A program made the translations under genes and the position numbers. Below, piece after piece: positions 1-10,285 of a stretch of 10,434 bases of DNA. How positions within the stretch are numbered: the stretch's first letter is position 1; the number at the start of each line of letters is the position of its first letter. Source of the stretch: a virus (Duplodnaviria; Heunggongvirae; Uroviricota; Caudoviricetes); the IMG/VR virus record IMGVR_UViG_2703719355_000005, one strand, 5' to 3'. A model generated the notes under the pieces. It had not been told where the DNA came from and searched no databases. It saw only the letters and a list, made by a program, of their open reading frames with translations.

Positions 1-1
1 A

Positions 2-241
2 TTTTTAGTCATCCTGTTTACCTCTTTCTCAGGGAGTTTAGTCTCCAGGATTTCCGGGGCGGTTCAATCCAGTACGCTTGATTCCATCCCTTTATCCATG
101 CAACGACAGTTTCCTGATTTAACACCGCGCCATCTTGACCATCTGAAAACCCTTATTGCGAAGGGGGCAAATCAGTGTGCGCGGGCGGGGGATAAATTAC
201 CGGATTTACTCGATGAATATATCAGAGCAACAACTGAATAA
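2..241 (+). CDS. nu1: Terminase small subunit, C-terminal fragment (lambda Nu1-like); 5' end lies outside the window
   Basis: Frame 2 is open from the window edge to TAA at 239-241. Its translation ...PLSMQRQFPDLTPRHLDHLKTLIAKGANQCARAGDKLPDLLDEYIRATTE resembles the lambda Nu1 C-terminus as I recall it (...PLSVQRRFPELENRHVDFLKRDIIKAMNKAAALDELIPGLLSEYIEQSG). It overlaps the terminase large subunit start, as in lambda. Confidence 0.8.
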   Translation, partial: FLVILFTSFSGSLVSRISGAVQSSTLDSIPLSMQRQFPDLTPRHLDHLKTLIAKGANQCARAGDKLPDLLDEYIRATTE

Positions 242-2141
242 TATGATGAGTGCTGTCACAACAGCATTACAGCCCCTGATAAGGGCATTGCCGGTGACGC
301 CAGTTGAATGGGCTGATCAAAATTATTATCTGCCTAAAGAATCTTCATATGGTGAGGGAGAATGGAAAACGCTGCCATTCCAGATCGCCATCATGAACAG
401 CATGGGGAATGATCAGATCCGCACTGTTAATCTGATTAAATCTGCCCGTGTTGGCTATACAAAGATGTTGCTGGGGGGGGTCGGGTATTTTATTGAGCAT
501 AAATCCCGAAACAGTCTGCTTTTTCAGCCCACGGATTCTGCCGCTGAAGATTTTATGAAGTCTCACGTGGAGGCGACGATTCGGGACGTGCCATGCCTGA
601 AAGATCTTTCCCCGTGGCTGGGTCGTAAACATCGTGACAATACTCTCACGCTGAAACGCTTTTCATCGGGGGTGGGCTTCTGGTGCCTGGGTGGTGCGGC
701 AGCAAAAAACTACCGTGAAAAATCCGTGGATGTGGTCTGTTATGACGAGCTTTCCTCGTTCGAACCGGATGTTGAAAAAGAGGGTTCGCCAACCCTGCTG
801 GGGGATAAACGTATTGAGGGCTCTGTATGGCCAAAATCCATTCGCGGCTCGACGCCTAAAATCAAAGGCTCCTGCCAGATCGAAAAAGCCGCTAACGAGT
901 CGGCACACTTCATGCGTTTTTATGTGCCCTGTCCGCACTGTGGGGAGGAGCAGTATCTGAAATTTGGCGATGATGCCTCGCCTTTCGGTCTTAAGTGGGA
1001 GAAGAATAAGCCAGAAAGTGTTTTCTACCTTTGTGAGCATCATGGCTGTGTGATCCATCAGTCTGAGCTTGACCAGAGTAACGGGCGGTGGATCTGTGAA
1101 AACACGGGCATGTGGACCCGTGACGGTCTGACGTTTTTCAGCGCCCGGGGTGATGAAATTCCGCCGCCGCGCTCCATCACGTTCCATATCTGGACGGCGT
1201 ACAGTCCGTTCACCACCTGGGTACAGATTGTCTATGACTGGCTGGATGCACTGAAAGATCCCAACGGCCTGAAAACCTTTGTGAACACCACGCTGGGCGA
1301 GACCTGGGAAGAGGCCGTGGGCGAAAAACTCGATCACCAGGTACTGATGGATAAGGTTGTGCGTTACACGGCGGCGGTGCCTGCCCGGGTGGTTTATCTG
1401 ACGGCGGGCATTGACTCGCAGCGAAACCGTTTTGAGATGTATGTCTGGGGATGGGCTCCGGGAGAGGAAGCCTTTCTGGTGGATAAAATCATCATTATGG
1501 GGCGTCCCGATGAGGAAGAGACGCTGTTACGTGTGGATGCGGCGATCAACAAAAAATACCGCCATGCGGATGGCACCGAAATGACCATTTCCCGTGTCTG
1601 CTGGGACACCGGGGGGATCGATGGTGAAATCGTCTACCAGAGGTCAAAAAAACACGGTGTTTTCCGTGTGCTGCCGGTAAAAGGCGCGTCTGTCTATGGC
1701 AAGCCGGTGATCACCATGCCAAAAACCCGCAATCAGCGGGGCGTGTATCTGTGTGAAGTGGGGACGGACACCGCAAAAGAAATTCTCTATGCCCGTATGA
1801 AAGCCGATCCCACGCCTGTGGATGAAGCCACGTCGTATGCCATCCGTTTTCCTGATGATCCGGAGATTTTTTCGCAGACAGAGGCGCAGCAACTGGTCGC
1901 GGAAGAGCTTGTGGAGAAGTGGGAAAAAGGAAAGATGCGTCTGCTGTGGGATAACAAAAAGCGGCGTAACGAAGCGCTGGACTGCCTGGTGTATGCCTAC
2001 GCGGCATTACGTGTGTCCGTGCAACGCTGGCAGCTTGATCTGGCTGTACTGGCAAAATCCCGGGAAGAAGAGACGACCCGGCCAACCCTTAAAGAACTGG
2101 CAGCGAAGCTGTCCGGAGGAGTGAATGGTTACAGTCGCTGA
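213..2141 (+). CDS. A: Terminase large subunit (lambda gpA-like)
   Basis: 642-codon ORF. Recognisable end-to-end similarity to lambda gpA: N-terminus MNIS..., EWAD.NYYLPKESxY, KSARVGY(S/T)KMLLG ATPase region, CPHCGEEQYLKFGD zinc-ribbon-like motif, TAYSPFTTWVQIV, WDTGGID nuclease region. Start placed at ATG 213 (MNISEQQ), which matches the lambda N-terminus, rather than the ORF-track start at 156. Confidence 0.95.
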   Translation: MNISEQQLNNMMSAVTTALQPLIRALPVTPVEWADQNYYLPKESSYGEGEWKTLPFQIAIMNSMGNDQIRTVNLIKSARVGYTKMLLGGVGYFIEHKSRNSLLFQPTDSAAEDFMKSHVEATIRDVPCLKDLSPWLGRKHRDNTLTLKRFSSGVGFWCLGGAAAKNYREKSVDVVCYDELSSFEPDVEKEGSPTLLGDKRIEGSVWPKSIRGSTPKIKGSCQIEKAANESAHFMRFYVPCPHCGEEQYLKFGDDASPFGLKWEKNKPESVFYLCEHHGCVIHQSELDQSNGRWICENTGMWTRDGLTFFSARGDEIPPPRSITFHIWTAYSPFTTWVQIVYDWLDALKDPNGLKTFVNTTLGETWEEAVGEKLDHQVLMDKVVRYTAAVPARVVYLTAGIDSQRNRFEMYVWGWAPGEEAFLVDKIIIMGRPDEEETLLRVDAAINKKYRHADGTEMTISRVCWDTGGIDGEIVYQRSKKHGVFRVLPVKGASVYGKPVITMPKTRNQRGVYLCEVGTDTAKEILYARMKADPTPVDEATSYAIRFPDDPEIFSQTEAQQLVAEELVEKWEKGKMRLLWDNKKRRNEALDCLVYAYAALRVSVQRWQLDLAVLAKSREEETTRPTLKELAAKLSGGVNGYSR

Positions 2142-2331
2142 ACTGCAGGTGCTGCGTCAGGCGCGCCTTGATTTATTAACCGGTAAACGGGTGGTGTCTG
2201 TCCAGAAAGATGGTCGCAGAATTGAATATACGGCAGCTTCTCTGGATGAGCTTAACCGGGCGATCAATGATGCGGAGTCGGTACTGGGGACAACCCGGCG
2301 TCGCCGTCGTCCGCTGGGAGTGAGGTTATGA
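2125..2331 (+). CDS. W: Head-tail joining / head completion protein (lambda gpW-like)
   Basis: 68-aa ORF; LTGKRVVSVQKDGRRIEYTAASLDEL matches the lambda gpW core ([23 protein letters not shown]) and the length is the same. GGAGGA precedes the ATG. Overlaps the 3' end of A and the 5' end of B (ATGA). Confidence 0.9.
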   Translation: MVTVAELQVLRQARLDLLTGKRVVSVQKDGRRIEYTAASLDELNRAINDAESVLGTTRRRRRPLGVRL

Positions 2332-3920
2332 AACGAACGCCTGTCCTGATTGATGTGAACGGCGTTCCGCTTCGGGAGAGCCTCAGCTACAACGGTGGCG
2401 GTGCAGGATTTGGCGGGCAAATGGCAGAGTGGTTGCCACCCTCGCAGAGTGCCGATGCGGCCCTGCTGCCCGCGTTGCGTCTGGGGAATGCCCGTGCAGA
2501 TGATCTGGTGCGCAATAACGGAATAGCGGCCAATGCGGTGGCCCTGCATAAGGATCACATTGTCGGGCATATGTTTCTGATTAGCTACCGTCCGAACTGG
2601 CGCTGGCTGGGGATGCGGGAGACCGCGGCAAAAAGTTTTGTCGATGAGGTGGAGGCGGCCTGGTCAGAATACGCAGAAGGGATGTTTGGTGAGATCGACG
2701 TGGAAGGGAAACGCACGTTTACGGAATTTATCCGTGAAGGTGTGGGCGTTCATGCGTTTAACGGCGAAATCTTTGTGCAGCCGGTCTGGGATACGGAGAG
2801 TACGCAACTGTTTCGTACGCGTTTTAAAGCCGTGAGTCCGAAACGGGTGGACACGCCAGGACACGGTATCGGGAACCGTTTTCTGCGGGCCGGTGTGGAG
2901 GTTGATCGATATGGCCGTGCCGTTGCGTACCATATCTGTGAGGATGATTTTCCTCGCTCCGGGAGTGGACGATGGGAACGGATCCCGCGTGAACTACCCA
3001 CCGGGCGTCCGGCCATGCTGCATATTTTCGAGCCGGTGGAGGACGGGCAGACCCGTGGAGCCAATCAGTTTTACAGCGTTATGGAACGGCTGAAGATGCT
3101 GGATTCCCTGCAGGCAACACAGCTTCAGTCGGCCATAGTGAAGGCGATGTATGCAGCGACGATTGAAAGTGACCTTGATACCGAAAAGGCCTTTGAATAT
3201 ATCGCCGGTGCGCCGCAGGGGCAGAAGGATAATCCGCTTATTAATATTCTGGATAAGTTCTCCACCTGGTATGACACGAATAGCGTGACGCTGGGCGGTG
3301 TCAAAATTCCGCACCTTTTCCCCGGTGATGATCTGAAACTTCAGACCGCGCAGGATTCAGACAATGGATTTTCGGCGCTTGAACAGGCGCTGCTGCGGTA
3401 TATCGCCGCCGGTCTTGGCGTTTCCTACGAACAGTTGTCCCGGGATTACTCGAAGGTCAGTTATTCAAGTGCCCGCGCCTCCGCCAATGAGTCGTGGCGC
3501 TATTTTATGGGACGACGAAAATTTATTGCGTCCCGGCTGGCCACGCAGATGTTTTCCTGCTGGCTGGAAGAGGCACTTCTTCGGGGGATTATTCGTCCGC
3601 CACGGGCGCGTTTTGATTTTTATCAGGCGCGATCAGCCTGGTCACGGGCTGAGTGGATTGGAGCCGGAAGAATGGCCATTGACGGGCTCAAGGAAGTCCA
3701 GGAATCAGTGATGCGCATTGAGGCCGGACTGAGCACGTATGAGAAAGAGCTGGCGCTGATGGGCGAGGATTATCAGGACATTTTCCGCCAGCAGGTCAGG
3801 GAATCTGCAGAGCGGGAAAAAGCCGGACTCTCACGTCCGGTGTGGATAGCGCAGGCGTATCAGCAGCAGATAGCGGAGAGTCGCAGGCCGGAAGAGGAGA
3901 CAACACCACGTGAGACGTAA
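2328..3920 (+). CDS. B: Portal protein (lambda gpB-like)
   Basis: 530-aa ORF in the lambda B position with a similar length (I recall about 533 aa for lambda), located between W and C; the start overlaps the W stop (ATGA). Confidence 0.93.
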   Translation: MKRTPVLIDVNGVPLRESLSYNGGGAGFGGQMAEWLPPSQSADAALLPALRLGNARADDLVRNNGIAANAVALHKDHIVGHMFLISYRPNWRWLGMRETAAKSFVDEVEAAWSEYAEGMFGEIDVEGKRTFTEFIREGVGVHAFNGEIFVQPVWDTESTQLFRTRFKAVSPKRVDTPGHGIGNRFLRAGVEVDRYGRAVAYHICEDDFPRSGSGRWERIPRELPTGRPAMLHIFEPVEDGQTRGANQFYSVMERLKMLDSLQATQLQSAIVKAMYAATIESDLDTEKAFEYIAGAPQGQKDNPLINILDKFSTWYDTNSVTLGGVKIPHLFPGDDLKLQTAQDSDNGFSALEQALLRYIAAGLGVSYEQLSRDYSKVSYSSARASANESWRYFMGRRKFIASRLATQMFSCWLEEALLRGIIRPPRARFDFYQARSAWSRAEWIGAGRMAIDGLKEVQESVMRIEAGLSTYEKELALMGEDYQDIFRQQVRESAEREKAGLSRPVWIAQAYQQQIAESRRPEEETTPRET

Positions 3921-5415
3921 TCTTTCACACATTATTGCCGCAGCATTCAATGAACCGCTGCTTCTGGAGCCCGCCTATGCGCGGGTTTTCTTTTGCGCGC
4001 TGGGGCGCGAGATGGGGGCAGCAAGTCTTTCGGTACCACAACAACAGGTACAGCTTGATGCTTCCGGAATGCTGGCTGAAACGGACGAGTACATGGCCGG
4101 AGGTAAACGACCGGCCCGTGTTTACCGGGTGGTGAACGGTATTGCGGTACTGCCGGTGACCGGCACGCTGGTGCACCGGCTGGGGGGGATGCGGCCATTT
4201 TCCGGAATGACAGGCTATGACGGTATTGTCGCCTGTCTTCAGCAGGCAATGGCAGATAGCCAGGTGCGGGGCATACTGCTGGACATTGACAGTCCGGGCG
4301 GGCAGGCCGCCGGCGCGTTTGACTGCGCTGACATGATTTACCGCCTCCGGCAGCAGAAGCCGGTCTGGGCACTGTGCAATGACACGGCCTGTTCTGCGGC
4401 CATGCTGCTGGCGTCGGCCTGCTCCCGACGGCTGGTTACCCAGACATCCCGTATCGGCTCCATTGGCGTGATGATGAGCCATGTCAGCTATGCCGGTCAT
4501 CTGGCGCAGGCCGGGGTGGATATCACGCTGATTTATGCCGGGGCGCACAAGGTGGATGGCAATCAGTTTGAAGCGTTGCCGGCAGAGGTTCGCCAGGACA
4601 TGCAGCAGCGGATTGATGCGGCGCGCCGGATGTTTGCCGAAAAAGTGGCGATGTATACCGGGTTGTCTGTTGATGCAGTCACGGGAACAGAGGCCGCCGT
4701 TTTTGAAGGTCAGTCCGGCATTGAGGCCGGACTGGCGGATGAATTAATCAATGCGTCGGATGCCATCAGTGTGATGGCCACGGCGCTGAACAGTAATGTC
4801 AGAGGAGGCACTATGCCGCAATTAACTGCAACGGAAGCCGCCGCGCAGGAGAACCAGCGAGTGATGGGGATCCTGACATGCCAGGAAGCGAAAGGACGTG
4901 AACAGCTTGCCACGATGCTGGCAGGACAACAGGGCATGAGCGTTGAACAGGCCCGGGCGATTCTGGCCGCGGCGGCACCGCAGCAGCCGGTGGCATCCGC
5001 GCAGAGTGAAGCCGATCGCATTATGGCGTGTGAAGAAGCGAAAGGTCGTGAACAACTGGCGGCAACGCTGGCGGCGATGCCGGAGATGACGGTGGAAAAA
5101 GCACGCCCGATCCTGGCGGCTGCACCACTGGCGGATGCCGGGCCCTCACTTCGTGATCAGATCATGGCCCTGGATGAGGCAAAAGGGGCAGAAGCGCAGG
5201 CTGAAAAACTGGCGGCCTGCCCGGGAATGACCGTGGAGAACGCCCGGGCTGTGCTGGCTGCGGGATCAGGTAAGGCCGAACCGGTCTCTGCATCCACAAC
5301 CGCCCTGTTTGAACATTTCATGGCGAATCATTCACCGGCAGCGGTGCGGGGTGGCGTGTCACAGACGTCAGCAGACGGTGATGCGGACGTGAAAATGCTC
5401 ATGGCCATGCCATGA
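3910..5415 (+). CDS. C: Prohead protease / scaffold fusion (lambda gpC-like, S49/ClpP-family serine peptidase domain), GTG start
   Basis: 501-aa ORF. N-terminal two-thirds resembles lambda gpC (NLSHIIAAAFNEPLLLEPAYARVFFCAL..., GIAVLPV.GTLV, DSPGG.AAGAFDCAD, VWAL.ND..CSA, GSIGVMM, LADEL.N..DAI). GTG start at 3910 overlaps the B stop, with GAGGAG upstream. The C-terminal third is the Nu3-like scaffold region. Confidence 0.9.
   Translation: MRRNLSHIIAAAFNEPLLLEPAYARVFFCALGREMGAASLSVPQQQVQLDASGMLAETDEYMAGGKRPARVYRVVNGIAVLPVTGTLVHRLGGMRPFSGMTGYDGIVACLQQAMADSQVRGILLDIDSPGGQAAGAFDCADMIYRLRQQKPVWALCNDTACSAAMLLASACSRRLVTQTSRIGSIGVMMSHVSYAGHLAQAGVDITLIYAGAHKVDGNQFEALPAEVRQDMQQRIDAARRMFAEKVAMYTGLSVDAVTGTEAAVFEGQSGIEAGLADELINASDAISVMATALNSNVRGGTMPQLTATEAAAQENQRVMGILTCQEAKGREQLATMLAGQQGMSVEQARAILAAAAPQQPVASAQSEADRIMACEEAKGREQLAATLAAMPEMTVEKARPILAAAPLADAGPSLRDQIMALDEAKGAEAQAEKLAACPGMTVENARAVLAAGSGKAEPVSASTTALFEHFMANHSPAAVRGGVSQTSADGDADVKMLMAMP
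4813..5415 (+). CDS. nu3: Putative nested scaffolding protein (lambda Nu3-like), in-frame internal start within C
   Basis: Strong Shine-Dalgarno AGAGGAGG at 4801-4808 followed by ATG at 4813, in the same frame as C. The position aligns with the lambda Nu3 start (..SGGRMTKETQ versus ..RGGTMPQLTA). In lambda, Nu3 is translated from an internal in-frame start in C. Confidence 0.6.
   Translation: MPQLTATEAAAQENQRVMGILTCQEAKGREQLATMLAGQQGMSVEQARAILAAAAPQQPVASAQSEADRIMACEEAKGREQLAATLAAMPEMTVEKARPILAAAPLADAGPSLRDQIMALDEAKGAEAQAEKLAACPGMTVENARAVLAAGSGKAEPVSASTTALFEHFMANHSPAAVRGGVSQTSADGDADVKMLMAMP
4855..5270 (+). repeat. Three tandem copies of an approximately 47-codon scaffold module inside C/Nu3 (period about 141-159 nt)
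   Basis: Protein-level repeats: (1) RVMGILTCQEAKGREQLATMLAGQQGMSVEQARAILAAAAP, (2) RIMACEEAKGREQLAATLAAMPEMTVEKARPILAAAPL, (3) QIMALDEAKGAEAQAEKLAACPGMTVENARAVLAAG. Similarity is also visible in the DNA (gaagcgaaagg.cgtgaaca at about 4884 and 5034). From memory, lambda has a single copy (SRIMGILNCEEAHGREEQARVLAETPGMTVKTARRILAAAPQ). Confidence 0.8.
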
Positions 5416-5451: not shown

Positions 5452-5799
5452 ATGGTGACGAAAACCATCACTGAACAGCGTGCGGAAGTACGTATTTTTG
5501 CCGGTAATGATCCGGCTCATACCGCCACAGGCAGCAGCGGGATTTCTTCTGCAACACCGGCTCTGACGCCCCTGATGCTGGATGAAGCCACCGGGAAACT
5601 GGTGGTCTGGGACGGACAGAAAGCCGGTAGTGCGGTTGGCATACTGGTACTGCCGCTTGAAGGCACAGAGACGGTGCTGACCTATTACAAGTCGGGGACC
5701 TTTGCGACGGAGGCAATCCGCTGGCCTGACAGTGTGGATGAACACAAAAAGGCAAATGCCTTTGCCGGCACAGCCCTGAGTCACGCGGCTCTGCCGTAA
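5452..5799 (+). CDS. D: Head decoration protein (lambda gpD-like)
   Basis: 115-aa ORF; DPAHTAT, TPLMLD, KLVVWDG, AVGIL, YKSGTF and AFAGTA motifs match lambda gpD (110 aa). AGGAGG lies 10 nt upstream of the ATG. Confidence 0.9.
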   Translation: MVTKTITEQRAEVRIFAGNDPAHTATGSSGISSATPALTPLMLDEATGKLVVWDGQKAGSAVGILVLPLEGTETVLTYYKSGTFATEAIRWPDSVDEHKKANAFAGTALSHAALP

Positions 5800-5807
5800 C
5801 ACGTTAT

Positions 5808-5827
5808 CAGGCCACCATGGTGGCCTG
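5808..5827 (+). promoter_or_regulatory. Perfect palindrome / hairpin in the D-E intergenic region (8-bp stem CAGGCCAC/GTGGCCTG, loop CATG)
   Basis: Read directly from sequence: caggccac catg gtggcctg. It is followed by only a weak T-run (gatttct), so it is more likely an RNA-stability or attenuation element than a strong terminator. Confidence 0.45.
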
Positions 5828-5949
5828 ACTGATTTCTGAATGAAAGGAACTGATTTATGGGATTGTTTACGACCCGCTAGTTACTCGGTTATACCGAACA
5901 AAAAGTTAAATTTCGTGCGCTGTTTCTGGAACTGTTTTTCCGCCGTACG

Positions 5950-6885
5950 GTGAATTTCCACACCGAAGAGGTGATGCTGGACAAAATTACCGGAAAAACG
6001 CCGGTGGCGGCCTATGTCTCCCCGGTCGTTGAAGGAAAAGTGCTGCGTCATCGTGGGGGTGAAACCCGCGTGTTACGTCCGGGCTACGTCAAGCCGAAAC
6101 ACGAATTTAATTACCAGCAGGCGGTTGAACGCCTTCCTGGTGAAGATCCGGCTCAACTGAACGATCCGGCTTACCGCCGTCTGCGTATCATTACCGATAA
6201 CCTCAAACAGGAAGAGCACGCGATTGTCCAGGTGGAAGAAATACAGGCGGTAAATGCTGTGTTGTATGGCAAATATACGATGGAAGGAGACCAGTTCGAG
6301 AAAATTGAGGTCGATTTTGGCAGGTCGACGAAGAATAACATCACTCAGGGTAGTGGTAAGGAGTGGTCAAAACAGGATCGTGACACGTTCGATCCTACAC
6401 ATGATCTTGACCTCTACTGCGACCAGGCCAGCGGTCTTGTGAATATTGCCATTATGGACGGTACCGTCTGGCGTCTTCTGAATGGTTTTAAGCTGTTCCG
6501 CGAAAAACTGGATACCCGTCGCGGTTCAAATTCTCAACTCGAAACGGCAGTGAAAGATCTGGGCGCAGTGGTGTCCTTCAAGGGGTATTACGGCGATCTG
6601 GCCATTGTGGTGGCGAAAACGTCTTATATAGCAGAAGACGGTATCGAAAAACGTTATCTGCCGGAGGGCATGCTGGTTCTGGGGAATACTGCTGCAGATG
6701 GGATCCGTTGTTACGGTGCCATTCAGGATGCGCAGGCGTTGTCCGAAGGTGTGGTGGCCTCTTCCCGTTATCCGAAACACTGGCTGACGGTGGGGGATCC
6801 CGCCCGTGAATTTACCATGACGCAGTCCGCGCCGCTGATGGTGTTGCCGGACCCGGATGAGTTTGTGGTGGTACAGGTGAAATAA
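5950..6885 (+). CDS. E: Major capsid protein (lambda gpE-like). The conserved N-terminal codons continue upstream to ATG 5857 but are interrupted by an in-frame TAG at 5878-5880, so this may be an amber allele or pseudogene
   Basis: The open frame from GTG 5950 encodes ...YVSPVVEGKVLRHRGGET...PGYVKPKHE...DPAYRR.RII...GKYTM.G...RGSNS.LETAVKDLG...TGDPAREFTM.QSAPLM, matching lambda gpE. The same frame upstream reads MGLFTTR*LLGYTEQKVKFRALFLELFFRR, which aligns with lambda MSMYTTAQLLAANEQKFKFDPLFLRLFFRE. A Shine-Dalgarno AAGGA lies 8 nt before ATG 5857. Confidence 0.85.
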   Translation: MNFHTEEVMLDKITGKTPVAAYVSPVVEGKVLRHRGGETRVLRPGYVKPKHEFNYQQAVERLPGEDPAQLNDPAYRRLRIITDNLKQEEHAIVQVEEIQAVNAVLYGKYTMEGDQFEKIEVDFGRSTKNNITQGSGKEWSKQDRDTFDPTHDLDLYCDQASGLVNIAIMDGTVWRLLNGFKLFREKLDTRRGSNSQLETAVKDLGAVVSFKGYYGDLAIVVAKTSYIAEDGIEKRYLPEGMLVLGNTAADGIRCYGAIQDAQALSEGVVASSRYPKHWLTVGDPAREFTMTQSAPLMVLPDPDEFVVVQVK

Positions 6886-6892
6886 TCCGTGA

Positions 6893-6922
6893 GCGGGGGC
6901 GAAATGCCCCCGTGTCTTTTTT
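6893..6922 (+). terminator. Rho-independent terminator-like hairpin immediately after the major capsid gene
   Basis: GC-rich stem cgggggc (6894-6900), loop gaaat, stem gcccccg (6906-6912), followed by tgtctttttt (T6 at 6917-6922). Lies between the E stop (6885) and the FI start (6937). Confidence 0.65.
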
Positions 6923-8248: not shown

Positions 8249-8640
8249 AACACACTGACATTCGTGCCGCAGTGCTGGATGCACTCGAGCAGCATGAACA
8301 CGGGGCGACGCTGTTTGATGGTCGCCCCGTTGTTTTTGACGAAGAGGATTTTCCTGCGATCGCGGTTTATCTGACGGATGCAGAGTATACCGGTGAAGAG
8401 CTGGATGCAGATACCTGGCGGGCCACACTGCATATTGAGGTGTTTTTACCGGCACAGGTACCGGATTCAGAGCTCGATCAGTGGATGGAAAGCCGGATTT
8501 ACCCGGCGATGACCGCGATCCCGGCACTGGCAGGACTGATTACCACGATGGTTACGCAGGGCTATGAGTATCGTCGTGATGACGATATGGCGTTATGGAG
8601 TTCTGCTGATTTGACTTATTCCATTACATACGAGATGTGA
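8245..8640 (+). CDS. U: Minor tail protein U (lambda gpU-like tail terminator)
   Basis: 131 aa; [79 protein letters not shown] matches lambda gpU (131 aa). ATGA overlap with the Z stop. Confidence 0.92.
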
Positions 8641-8647
8641 GGACGAT

Positions 8648-9400
8648 ATGCCAACACCAAATCCTCTGGCACCGGTAAAAGGTGCCGGTACCACCCTGTG
8701 GGTTTATAACGGTCAGGGTGATGCCTATGCAAACCCGTTGTCAGACGATAACTGGCAGCGACTGGCACAGGTAAAGGATCTGACGCCGGGCGAGATGACG
8801 GCAGAACCCTACGATGATAACTACCTGGATGATGAAGACGCGGACTGGACTGCGACCGGGCAGGGGCAGAAATCTGCAGGTGATACCAGTTTTACGCTGG
8901 CCTGGAAACCGGGAGAGGAAGGCCAGAAAGGGCTTATAGGCTGGTTTGAAAGCGGCGATGTCCGGGCCTATAAAATCCGTTTTCCGAATGGCACGGTGGA
9001 TGTGTTTCGTGGCTGGGTCAGCAGTATCGGTAAGGCCGTGACGGCGAAAGAAGTGATCACCCGCACGGTGAAAGTGACCAACGTGGGTAAACCTTCTGTA
9101 GCGGAAGAACGCAGCAAAATTACGCCGGTCAGTGCGATTAAGGTGACGCCGACATCCGGTACGGTGGCAAAAGGGAAAACAACCACCCTGACGGTTTCTT
9201 TTGAGCCGGAAAGTGCAACCGACAAAACGTTCAGAGCGGTTTCCGCCGATCCGTCAACGGGAACCATTGCTGTGAAAGATATGGCGATCACTGTGACGGG
9301 GGTTAAGGCTGGAAAAGTGAGTATCCCCGTGATTTCCGGTAATGGTCAGTTTGCCACGGTAGCTGAAGTCACCGTTACTGAAGCGGGCGCTGCAGGGTAA
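8648..9400 (+). CDS. V: Major tail protein V (lambda gpV-like) with a C-terminal Ig-like (Big_2-type) domain
   Basis: 250-aa ORF in the V position. The N-terminal domain resembles lambda gpV. The C-terminal roughly 90 residues (about 9110-9400; ...[30 protein letters not shown]...[13 protein letters not shown]...) have the beta-rich, T/V/S-rich pattern of the Ig-like domain known at the lambda gpV C-terminus. GAGGA lies before the ATG. Confidence 0.92.
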
Positions 9401-9413
9401 ACGGAGGTAATAC

Positions 9414-9845
9414 ATGTTTCTGAAAACCGAACAATTTGAATATAACGGTGTGTCCGTCACGCTTTCCGAGCTGTCTGCGCTGCAGCGTATCGAGCATCTT
9501 GCCCTGCTGAAACGACGGGCAGAACAGGCTGAAGCCAGCGGTAACCTGCAGGTGAGCGTGGAAGACCTTGTCAGAACCGGCGCGTTTCTGGTGGCGATGT
9601 CCCTGTGGCATAACCATCCACAGAAAACGGAGTCACCGTCAATGAATGAGGCCGTGATGAAGATAGAGCAGGAAGTGCTCACCACCTGGCCTGCCGATGC
9701 CATTGCCCGGGCGGAAGACGTGGTGTTGTGCCTGTCCGGGATGATCGAAGCTGTTCGTCCGGATACTGATATTACTGAAGTGGCGAAAAATAACACGCTG
9801 ACTGATGATGATTTTTCTGCGGGAAAGTCTTCGACGGCGAGCTGA
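9414..9845 (+). CDS. G: Tail assembly chaperone G (lambda gpG-like)
   Basis: 143 aa; MFLKTEQFEYNGVSVTLSELSALQRIEHLALLKRRAEQAE...TGAFLVAMSLWHNHPQKT..PSMNEAV..IEQEVLTTWP is near-identical in pattern to lambda gpG. GGAGGT precedes the ATG. Confidence 0.92.
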   Translation: MFLKTEQFEYNGVSVTLSELSALQRIEHLALLKRRAEQAEASGNLQVSVEDLVRTGAFLVAMSLWHNHPQKTESPSMNEAVMKIEQEVLTTWPADAIARAEDVVLCLSGMIEAVRPDTDITEVAKNNTLTDDDFSAGKSSTAS

Positions 9846-10285
9846 ACTTTGCCCTCAGACTGGCGCGTGAGATGGGGAGACCCGACTGGCGCGCCATGCT
9901 TGCCGGGATGACATCCACCGAATATGCCGACTGGCACCGTTTTTACCGCACGCATTATTTTCAGGATACCCAGCTGGATATGCATTTTTCCGGGCTGACG
10001 TACGCTGTACTCAGCCTGTTTTTTTGCGATCCGGATATGCATCCCTCTGATTTCAGTCTGCTTGTCCCCCGGCATGAGGAAGAGCAGGTGGAGAGGCTGG
10101 ATGAGGACAAAATGCTGATGCAGAAAGCGGCAGGACTTGCCGGAGGCGTCCGGTTCGGTGGGGACGGAGGGCGCGATATTTTATCGTCTGCGGATGTGGC
10201 GGATGTCATGGTGGATGATGCCGCATTAATGATGGCTTCAGCGGGGATTTCCGGAGGTGTGAGATATGTCCCAGCCGGTTGGTGA
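9414..10285 (+). CDS. Tail assembly chaperone G-T fusion, made by -1 frameshift at 9821-9827 (G frame 9414-9827, then T frame 9827-10285)
   Basis: The T frame (position mod 3 = 2) is exactly -1 relative to G (mod 3 = 0) and is open through the slip site to TGA at 10283-10285. Arrangement is conserved in lambda and many other tailed phages. Confidence 0.8.
9821..9827 (+). other. Programmed -1 ribosomal frameshift slippery heptamer G_GGA_AAG (G/G-T)
   Basis: gggaaag at 9821-9827, with GGA and AAG as zero-frame codons 22 nt before the G stop. The -1 frame continues as VFDGELNFALRLAREMGRPDWRAMLAGMTSTEYADWHRF..., which matches the lambda gpGT junction and T sequence. Confidence 0.85.
9827..10285 (+). 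CDS. T: T-frame segment of the tail assembly protein (lambda gpT-like), expected to be expressed only as the G-T fusion
   Basis: Open -1 frame encoding VFDGELNFALRLAREMGRPDWRAMLAGMTSTEYADWHRFYRTHYFQDTQLDMHFSGLTYAVLSLFFCDPDMHPSDF... The first ATG (9872) has no convincing independent RBS. Confidence 0.75.
   Translation, partial: VFDGELNFALRLAREMGRPDWRAMLAGMTSTEYADWHRFYRTHYFQDTQLDMHFSGLTYAVLSLFFCDPDMHPSDFSLLVPRHEEEQVERLDEDKMLMQKAAGLAGGVRFGGDGGRDILSSADVADVMVDDAALMMASAGISGGVRYVPAGW

Follow-up and report, generated by a model that had tools for sequence, protein, structure and literature searches.

An in-frame amber codon at a conserved glutamine position of the major capsid gene in an apparently decaying lambdoid prophage of Escherichia coli

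The DNA analyzed here, which we call the window, is the whole 10,434-nucleotide stretch of IMG/VR record IMGVR_UViG_2703719355_000005. It carries a head and tail operon of the lambda/phage 21 type, in which the genes follow the order Nu1-A-W-portal-protease-shp-capsid-FI-FII-Z-U-V-G-T, the same as in phage 21, and the start of the tape-measure gene lies at the end. The features relevant to the analysis are given below, with coordinates counted from the first nucleotide of the window and with the strand where it bears on the argument.

1 to 66, minus strand: left end of IS629, with the terminal inverted repeat and the first orfA codons (ATGACTAAAAAT, minus strand), 100% identity
67 to 241, plus strand: 3' remnant of the small-terminase (Nu1-type) gene, its last ~57 codons (frame 68-241), cut by IS629 from the 5' two-thirds
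213 to 2141, plus strand: large terminase (gpA-type) gene, intact in the window and frameshifted by one added G at 667 in the sister contigs L007 and L012
2125 to 2331: W-like gene
2328 to 3920: portal gene
3910 to 5415: S49 protease/scaffold gene
5452 to 5799, plus strand: head decoration gene (phage 21 shp/lambda D type), intact
5845 to 5848, plus strand: ribosome-binding site AGGA of the capsid gene, the same as in phage 21 and matching the annotated ribosome-binding site of gene 7
5857 to 6885, plus strand: major capsid gene (phage 21 gp7/lambda gpE family), 342 codons, apparently a pseudogene through one internal stop
5878 to 5880, plus strand: amber codon TAG at codon 8, with T5878 in place of the C of CAG (Gln8) in relatives
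5950 to 6885, plus strand: residual open reading frame (ORF) called "capsid protein," 311 amino acids (from GTG 5950) or 303 amino acids (from ATG 5974)
9414 to 9845: tail-chaperone G gene
9872 to 10285: T gene

Several smaller elements accompany these genes. Near the end of the G gene and upstream of T lies the lambda-type G/T -1 frameshift heptamer GGGAAAG (9821-9827), and this programmed frameshift site appears intact. Two strong hairpins flank the capsid gene, at 5807-5828 and at 6893-6922. The former has a 9-bp stem (TCAGGCCACCATGGTGGCCTGA), is located between the decoration and capsid genes, and carries AT as its central bases where phage 21 carries GC. The latter is terminator-like, consisting of GCGGGGGC-GAAAT-GCCCCCGT followed by T6, and is positioned directly past the capsid stop. 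Nine terminator-like sites were observed in the region, compared to 1.8 expected. Outside this group of prophages, a 245-nt stretch of the 254-kb record MT713136.1 (Aeromonas phage AP1, 250152-250396) is 98% identical to the capsid gene. This stretch lies ~4 kb short of the record's end and is probably the product of contamination or chimeric assembly.

When read directly from the window, the frame that opens at ATG 5857 encodes MGLFTTR*LLGYTEQKVKF..., with TAG at 5878-5880. The codons quoted in the earlier note on this DNA, ATG(5857) GGA TTG TTT ACG ACC CGC TAG TTA CTC GGT TAT ACC GAA CAA AAA, match the window letter for letter. If the stop is read through or Gln is restored, the 342-residue product aligns with lambda gpE (PDB 7vi9) at E = 2e-134, with residues 1-341 on 1-340 and codon 8 opposite lambda Gln8. 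This alignment reproduces the N-terminal likeness to gpE that the earlier note had reported. Furthermore, the Pfam profile PF03864 (Phage_cap_E) is matched with E = 1.4e-63, with profile positions 1-329 on residues 5-341, and codon 8 therefore lies within the family profile. The gene thus has the full-length similarity of a Phage_cap_E member as well as the expected position in the head operon, with the decoration gene upstream and FI downstream, and what separates it from a functional member is the TAG at codon 8 that interrupts its frame. We consequently regard it as an apparently pseudogenized member of the gpE/gp7 family. The co-linearity with lambda gpE, the CAG of phage 21, and the conservation of Gln8 also uphold two further claims of the earlier note, namely that the TAG lies within genuine capsid coding sequence that is conserved, rather than marking a gene boundary, and that it is one transition away from CAG, the codon that phage 21 has at this place. 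A deamination hot spot at a Dcm site was considered for position 5878 but is not supported, since the context is GCCAGT and not CCWGG.

Relatives of the capsid gene consistently encode glutamine at this codon. Phage 21 is the nearest relative among named phages. Both of its records (OL657228.1 and M81255.1) carry CAG at capsid codon 8, have an annotated gp7 start at the equivalent of 5857, and are 97.2% identical to the window over 5780-6100. Across the whole gene, 20 of 1,029 nt differ from phage 21 gene 7, and these comprise 14 synonymous changes, 5 missense changes, and the C-to-T change at 5878. Gln8 is likewise kept in all four of the distinct solved homologues, for example as TTAQLL in lambda, TNQLF in the CFT073 prophage (3bqw), and TTYQLL in phage YSD1.

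A TAG-bearing 61-mer centered on the T was then compared with 5,426 complete E. coli genomes. It had no perfect match among the 1,870 matching records (2,910 places), and each best place carried at least one mismatch. The nearest complete genome is STEC005, which over the gene's first 281 nt departs from the window solely by the C at 5878, and the nearest complete-genome relatives are 99.7% identical over 5780-6100, with one base different. Exact TAG-containing 36-mers and 23-mers gave no match in GTDB species representatives, IMG/VR, or JGI metagenome contigs. As a positive control, we used a window-derived 37-mer that adjoins the T and starts at the second base of codon 8. This pattern was found in 57 IMG/VR contigs, all of which carry CAG (57/57) and share the identical MGLFTTR N terminus. 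The comparison with related prophages that the earlier note had proposed therefore returned CAG at codon 8, both in phage 21 and in every one of these contigs. No complete genome carries this exact prophage, and the best whole-window identity is ~97%. Within the collections searched, the TAG appears to be private to one lineage.

Related prophages from closed STEC genomes carry damage of their own. In O145:H28 strain RM13514, the related prophage shares 94-98% identity with the window, and its S49 protease/scaffold gene is frameshifted (L017, 5585-7559), whereas both its capsid gene and its small-terminase gene are intact. The prophage of O26:H11 strain 11368 has an internal stop in its large terminase gene (L016, 1047-1934).

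An exact-protein look-up of the residual 303-amino-acid ORF showed the window to be the entire contig CYGN01000101.1 (assembly GCA_001286505.1) and gave sister contigs from other NCBI assemblies, ENA metagenome assemblies, and Logan public-run assemblies, and a second look-up with the protease/scaffold protein gave additional ones. TAG is present at codon 8 in 12 contigs (L004-L007, L009-L012, L075-L077, and L079), which come from 12 samples in three archives (NCBI, ENA, and Logan). Because these contigs are 99.7-100% identical to the window, they represent a single clonal lineage. The source name given for one 303-amino-acid protein, CUA54273.1, is "phage head protein [Escherichia coli O145:H28]." A Shigella host had been considered in view of IS629 and the lack of this prophage in complete E. 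coli genomes, but the source name speaks against it. Truncated products of this kind are on record with 303 amino acids on 25 contigs and with 311 amino acids on 22 contigs, and at least 2 of the 25 contigs with the 303-amino-acid form are without a demonstrated TAG, namely L008 (which has CAG) and L013 (which begins downstream of codon 8).

The same contigs speak to whether T5878 is a sequencing or assembly error in this contig alone, as the earlier note had allowed. An error could account for the one base by which the window differs here from its nearest relatives among complete genomes, to which it is 99.7% identical over 5780-6100. However, the same T occurs in all 12 of the independently assembled contigs, which were obtained from 12 samples by different groups and with different pipelines, and position 5878 is outside any homopolymer. 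The error explanation is thus left with practically no probability. A different matter is L008 (FZID01000072.1), which was considered as a second, frameshifted CAG allele and rejected because its blocks are joined with ~123 bp duplicated overlaps, a typical assembly artifact. The joins are at 2050/2052, 4309/4312, and 5806/5808, where ~123 bp are repeated between blocks that differ in their identity to the window. The apparent frameshifts of this contig, including a split capsid gene with CAG, look like untrimmed k-mer overlaps and not like biology.

The capsid gene is not the only damaged gene in the window. Positions 1-66 match, with 100% identity, the left inverted repeat and the beginning of orfA that are annotated for IS629 in VT2-Sakai (AP000422.1) and VT1-Sakai, and the contig end falls inside the IS629 terminal inverted repeat. 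Short-read assemblies break at this junction because IS629 is repeated in many copies; in O145:H28 genomes, no insertion sequence is more abundant (PMC3893438). The earlier note had described every other morphogenesis gene as intact, which does not hold for the small-terminase gene, since IS629 cuts it at 66/67. Of the 164 positions in the Pfam Phage_Nu1 profile, the remnant covers just 127-163. In the intact small-terminase gene of E. coli O26:H11 11368 (510 nt), the equivalent of window position 67 is nt 336, which places the insertion at about codon 112 of 169. An identical junction is present in nine sister contigs, which is every sister contig that reaches that point, and no contig was found that has the exact gpC protein of the window but only one of the two changes (IS629 or the amber codon). 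Besides the capsid and small-terminase genes, the 12 other genes of the window are intact. Judging from the sequence, the prophage carries two independent lesions in head-assembly and DNA-packaging genes, the capsid amber codon and the IS629 element in the small terminase.

Strain O121 WL1277 (NZ_CP193494.1; see L014, 12054-12066) also has IS629 in the small-terminase gene, in the same orientation and 2 bp further on. The junctions read ...GGTTCA|CCAGTACG in WL1277 and ...GGTTCA|ATCCAGTACG in the window. The two insertions are independent of each other and suggest that there is a local IS629 hot spot.

Additional damage is evident in part of the lineage. In L007 and L012, which come from different archives, an extra G at 667 together with T673G creates a G10 run, and the large terminase is split into pieces of 168 and 471 amino acids. 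A separate run of eight G residues is present in the large terminase gene of the window at 473-480 (Gly89), where at least six sister contigs encode Val89 through a T at 478. The point differences within the lineage include five that are nonsynonymous (G89V and T505N in A, R25W and P357L in C, and S162T in V) and one that is synonymous, a count of six that leaves out a cluster of 16 substitutions in L005. C3916T in L007 and L012 is an additional difference and, by direct reading, is nonsynonymous in both overlapping frames. A ratio of 5:1 is what relaxed selection would predict, compared to the 14 synonymous and 5 nonsynonymous changes of the capsid gene against phage 21, although with such small numbers we take it as supporting evidence only. 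The L005 cluster (8618-8784 in that contig, 8607-8773 in the window) runs from the last part of U into the 5' part of the major tail gene V, and it appears to stem from a co-resident lambdoid prophage, either by recombination or through chimeric assembly.

Whether the amber codon abolishes the capsid protein depends on how it is decoded. Neither the ribosome-binding site nor the start codon of the capsid gene has changed, and the amber lesion is therefore young and, in principle, suppressible or revertible. A supE-like tRNA that inserts Gln in the host lineage, or a sufficient level of UAG readthrough, could then still give functional capsid protein. The TAG is one step from CAG, and a Gln-inserting suppressor or a near-cognate tRNA-Gln would restore the wild-type protein; as expected of a suppressible allele, the UAG stands in an essential gene in place of CAG, where the amino acid of the suppressor is tolerated. 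This argument is based on the genetics of lambda amber mutants, which is well established. None of the 13 stop codons of the window is a gene-ending TAG, which would also suit a suppressing host, but TAG is the rarest stop codon in E. coli, and its absence from so small a set is therefore uninformative. Several points weigh against suppression. There is no tRNA gene, and hence no suppressor tRNA, among the 10,434 nt of the window, and amber suppressors are laboratory alleles that are rare in natural isolates. Furthermore, a lambda T=7 head needs ~415 copies of the capsid protein, so trace readthrough would provide too little. A prophage already disabled by IS629, and in some members by the gpA frameshift, would also leave nothing for suppression to rescue. 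We consequently consider a suppressed amber very unlikely. Programmed stop readthrough or an alternative phage genetic code is a further proposal, whose probability we judge to be negligible. Nothing other than the in-frame position of the stop favors programmed readthrough. None of the 1,870 genome records or the 57 viral contigs carries the TAG, nor does phage 21. A signal with a programmed role would be expected to recur among relatives, and a TAG that is private to one lineage is therefore not such a signal. An alternative code is at odds with the nature of the element, which is an E. coli lambdoid prophage with the standard code.

A further alternative accepts the stop but has ribosomes re-initiate at GTG 5950 or ATG 5974, so that a truncated capsid protein assembles or gains a new role, such as blocking the assembly of related superinfecting phages. 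As the earlier note had pointed out, these are the next in-frame starts, and their use would remove the first 31-39 residues, where the N-arm starts. The downstream ORF extends over 311 codons without a stop, annotation pipelines report it as a gene, and the anti-Shine-Dalgarno sequence has a complement in GAGGTGAT (5968-5975). However, GAGGTGAT overlaps ATG 5974, and the GAGGTG element abuts or overlaps it, so that no normal spacer is left, in agreement with the earlier remark that this ATG has no usable spacer after its GAGGTG, and GTG 5950 has no Shine-Dalgarno sequence. The capsid ORF has so far acquired no substitution within the lineage, which might be taken as a sign of function, but the whole lineage shows only ~7 point differences in 10 kb, and a 1-kb ORF would by chance be expected to have escaped them. 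The re-initiation products would also be missing the first part of the HK97-fold N-arm. A strand of this arm in lambda joins a four-stranded sheet with the E-loop of the neighboring subunit and the N terminus of the decoration protein, and this sheet binds the decoration protein and links neighboring subunits (PMC5701804). We therefore strongly doubt that re-initiation yields a working product. The broader proposal that the amber allele is alive, either through a Gln suppressor or leaky UAG decoding or through a re-initiated protein without its N-arm that poisons phage-21/lambda-type head assembly and so provides an exclusion function, likewise merits little credence.

Given these considerations, we conclude that the amber codon is very probably an inactivating point mutation that forms part of the neutral, stepwise decay of a defective lambdoid prophage, and not a regulatory or recoding device. 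Among the explanations offered in the earlier note, an inactivating mutation in a prophage is the one that the evidence supports, given the inherited TAG, the IS629 insertion, and the later frameshift. Essential genes are disrupted by changes that are absent from functional relatives (the capsid amber codon and IS629), and vertical inheritance is seen together with accumulating lesions (the 12 TAG contigs, the 9 IS junctions, and the gpA frameshift sub-lineage). The decay would have involved a single C-to-T change at 5878 that turned Gln8 (CAG) into an amber codon in a phage-21-type capsid gene. This change presumably arose once, in the lambdoid prophage of one clonal E. coli lineage, and was then inherited vertically. 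In a nonsuppressing host, translation from the normal start would stop after seven residues, and since no full-length capsid protein would be made, the prophage would be unable to build heads alone. We infer that capsid production has been lost and that suppression is absent. With the small terminase split as well, the prophage would probably leave its own DNA unpackaged unless co-resident prophages supply both functions. Such help in trans has been documented for head-defective prophages of O157 Sakai (PMC2669165). Routine pseudogenization of the type seen in STEC is already well known, and no new mechanism is needed to explain the amber codon.

These observations have some practical uses. 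The TAG and the IS629 junction together form a clean marker that is specific to the lineage of this E. coli clone. The deposited 303- and 311-amino-acid "major capsid proteins" of the lineage are pseudogene truncation artifacts and deserve to be flagged as such. The locus also offers a small but well-resolved case of stepwise prophage decay, in which a nonsense point mutation and an IS insertion are followed by a frameshift. Its significance beyond annotation is small, and no new mechanism is shown.

Among known systems, the capsid gene most closely resembles phage 21 gene 7, with which it shares its start, its ribosome-binding site, its head-operon position between shp/D and FI, and 98% DNA identity. 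It is also co-linear with lambda gene E (gpE), which occupies the same operon position. Unlike these two genes, the window has TAG rather than CAG at codon 8, and a full-length protein would be impossible without suppression. Lambda E-amber lysogens, such as the Eam4 lysogens used for in vitro packaging extracts, produce no proheads in a su- host, although the other head and tail components are made. Like these mutants, the window is from a lambda-type prophage with a UAG near the start of its major capsid gene, and by analogy, a similar phenotype would be expected. In contrast to the Eam alleles, the window allele is natural, comes from a wild lineage, affects the phage 21 version of the gene, is accompanied by IS629 in a terminase gene, and has no known suppressor host.

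A second comparison is with the pool of Sp prophages in O157:H7 Sakai. Most lambdoid prophages of this STEC strain carry such defects, head genes included (Asadulghani et al. 2009, PMC2669165), and trans complementation by co-resident prophages was shown for Sp9 and Sp15 (PMC2669165). The window shares with this pool its lambdoid character, an EHEC-type background, head and packaging genes damaged by point mutations and IS elements, and IS629 as the disrupting element. It differs in the Gln8 amber codon in a phage-21-type capsid gene and in belonging to this particular lineage, both of which are absent from the sequence collections searched. The element is a typical member of the EHEC/STEC pool of defective lambdoid prophages.
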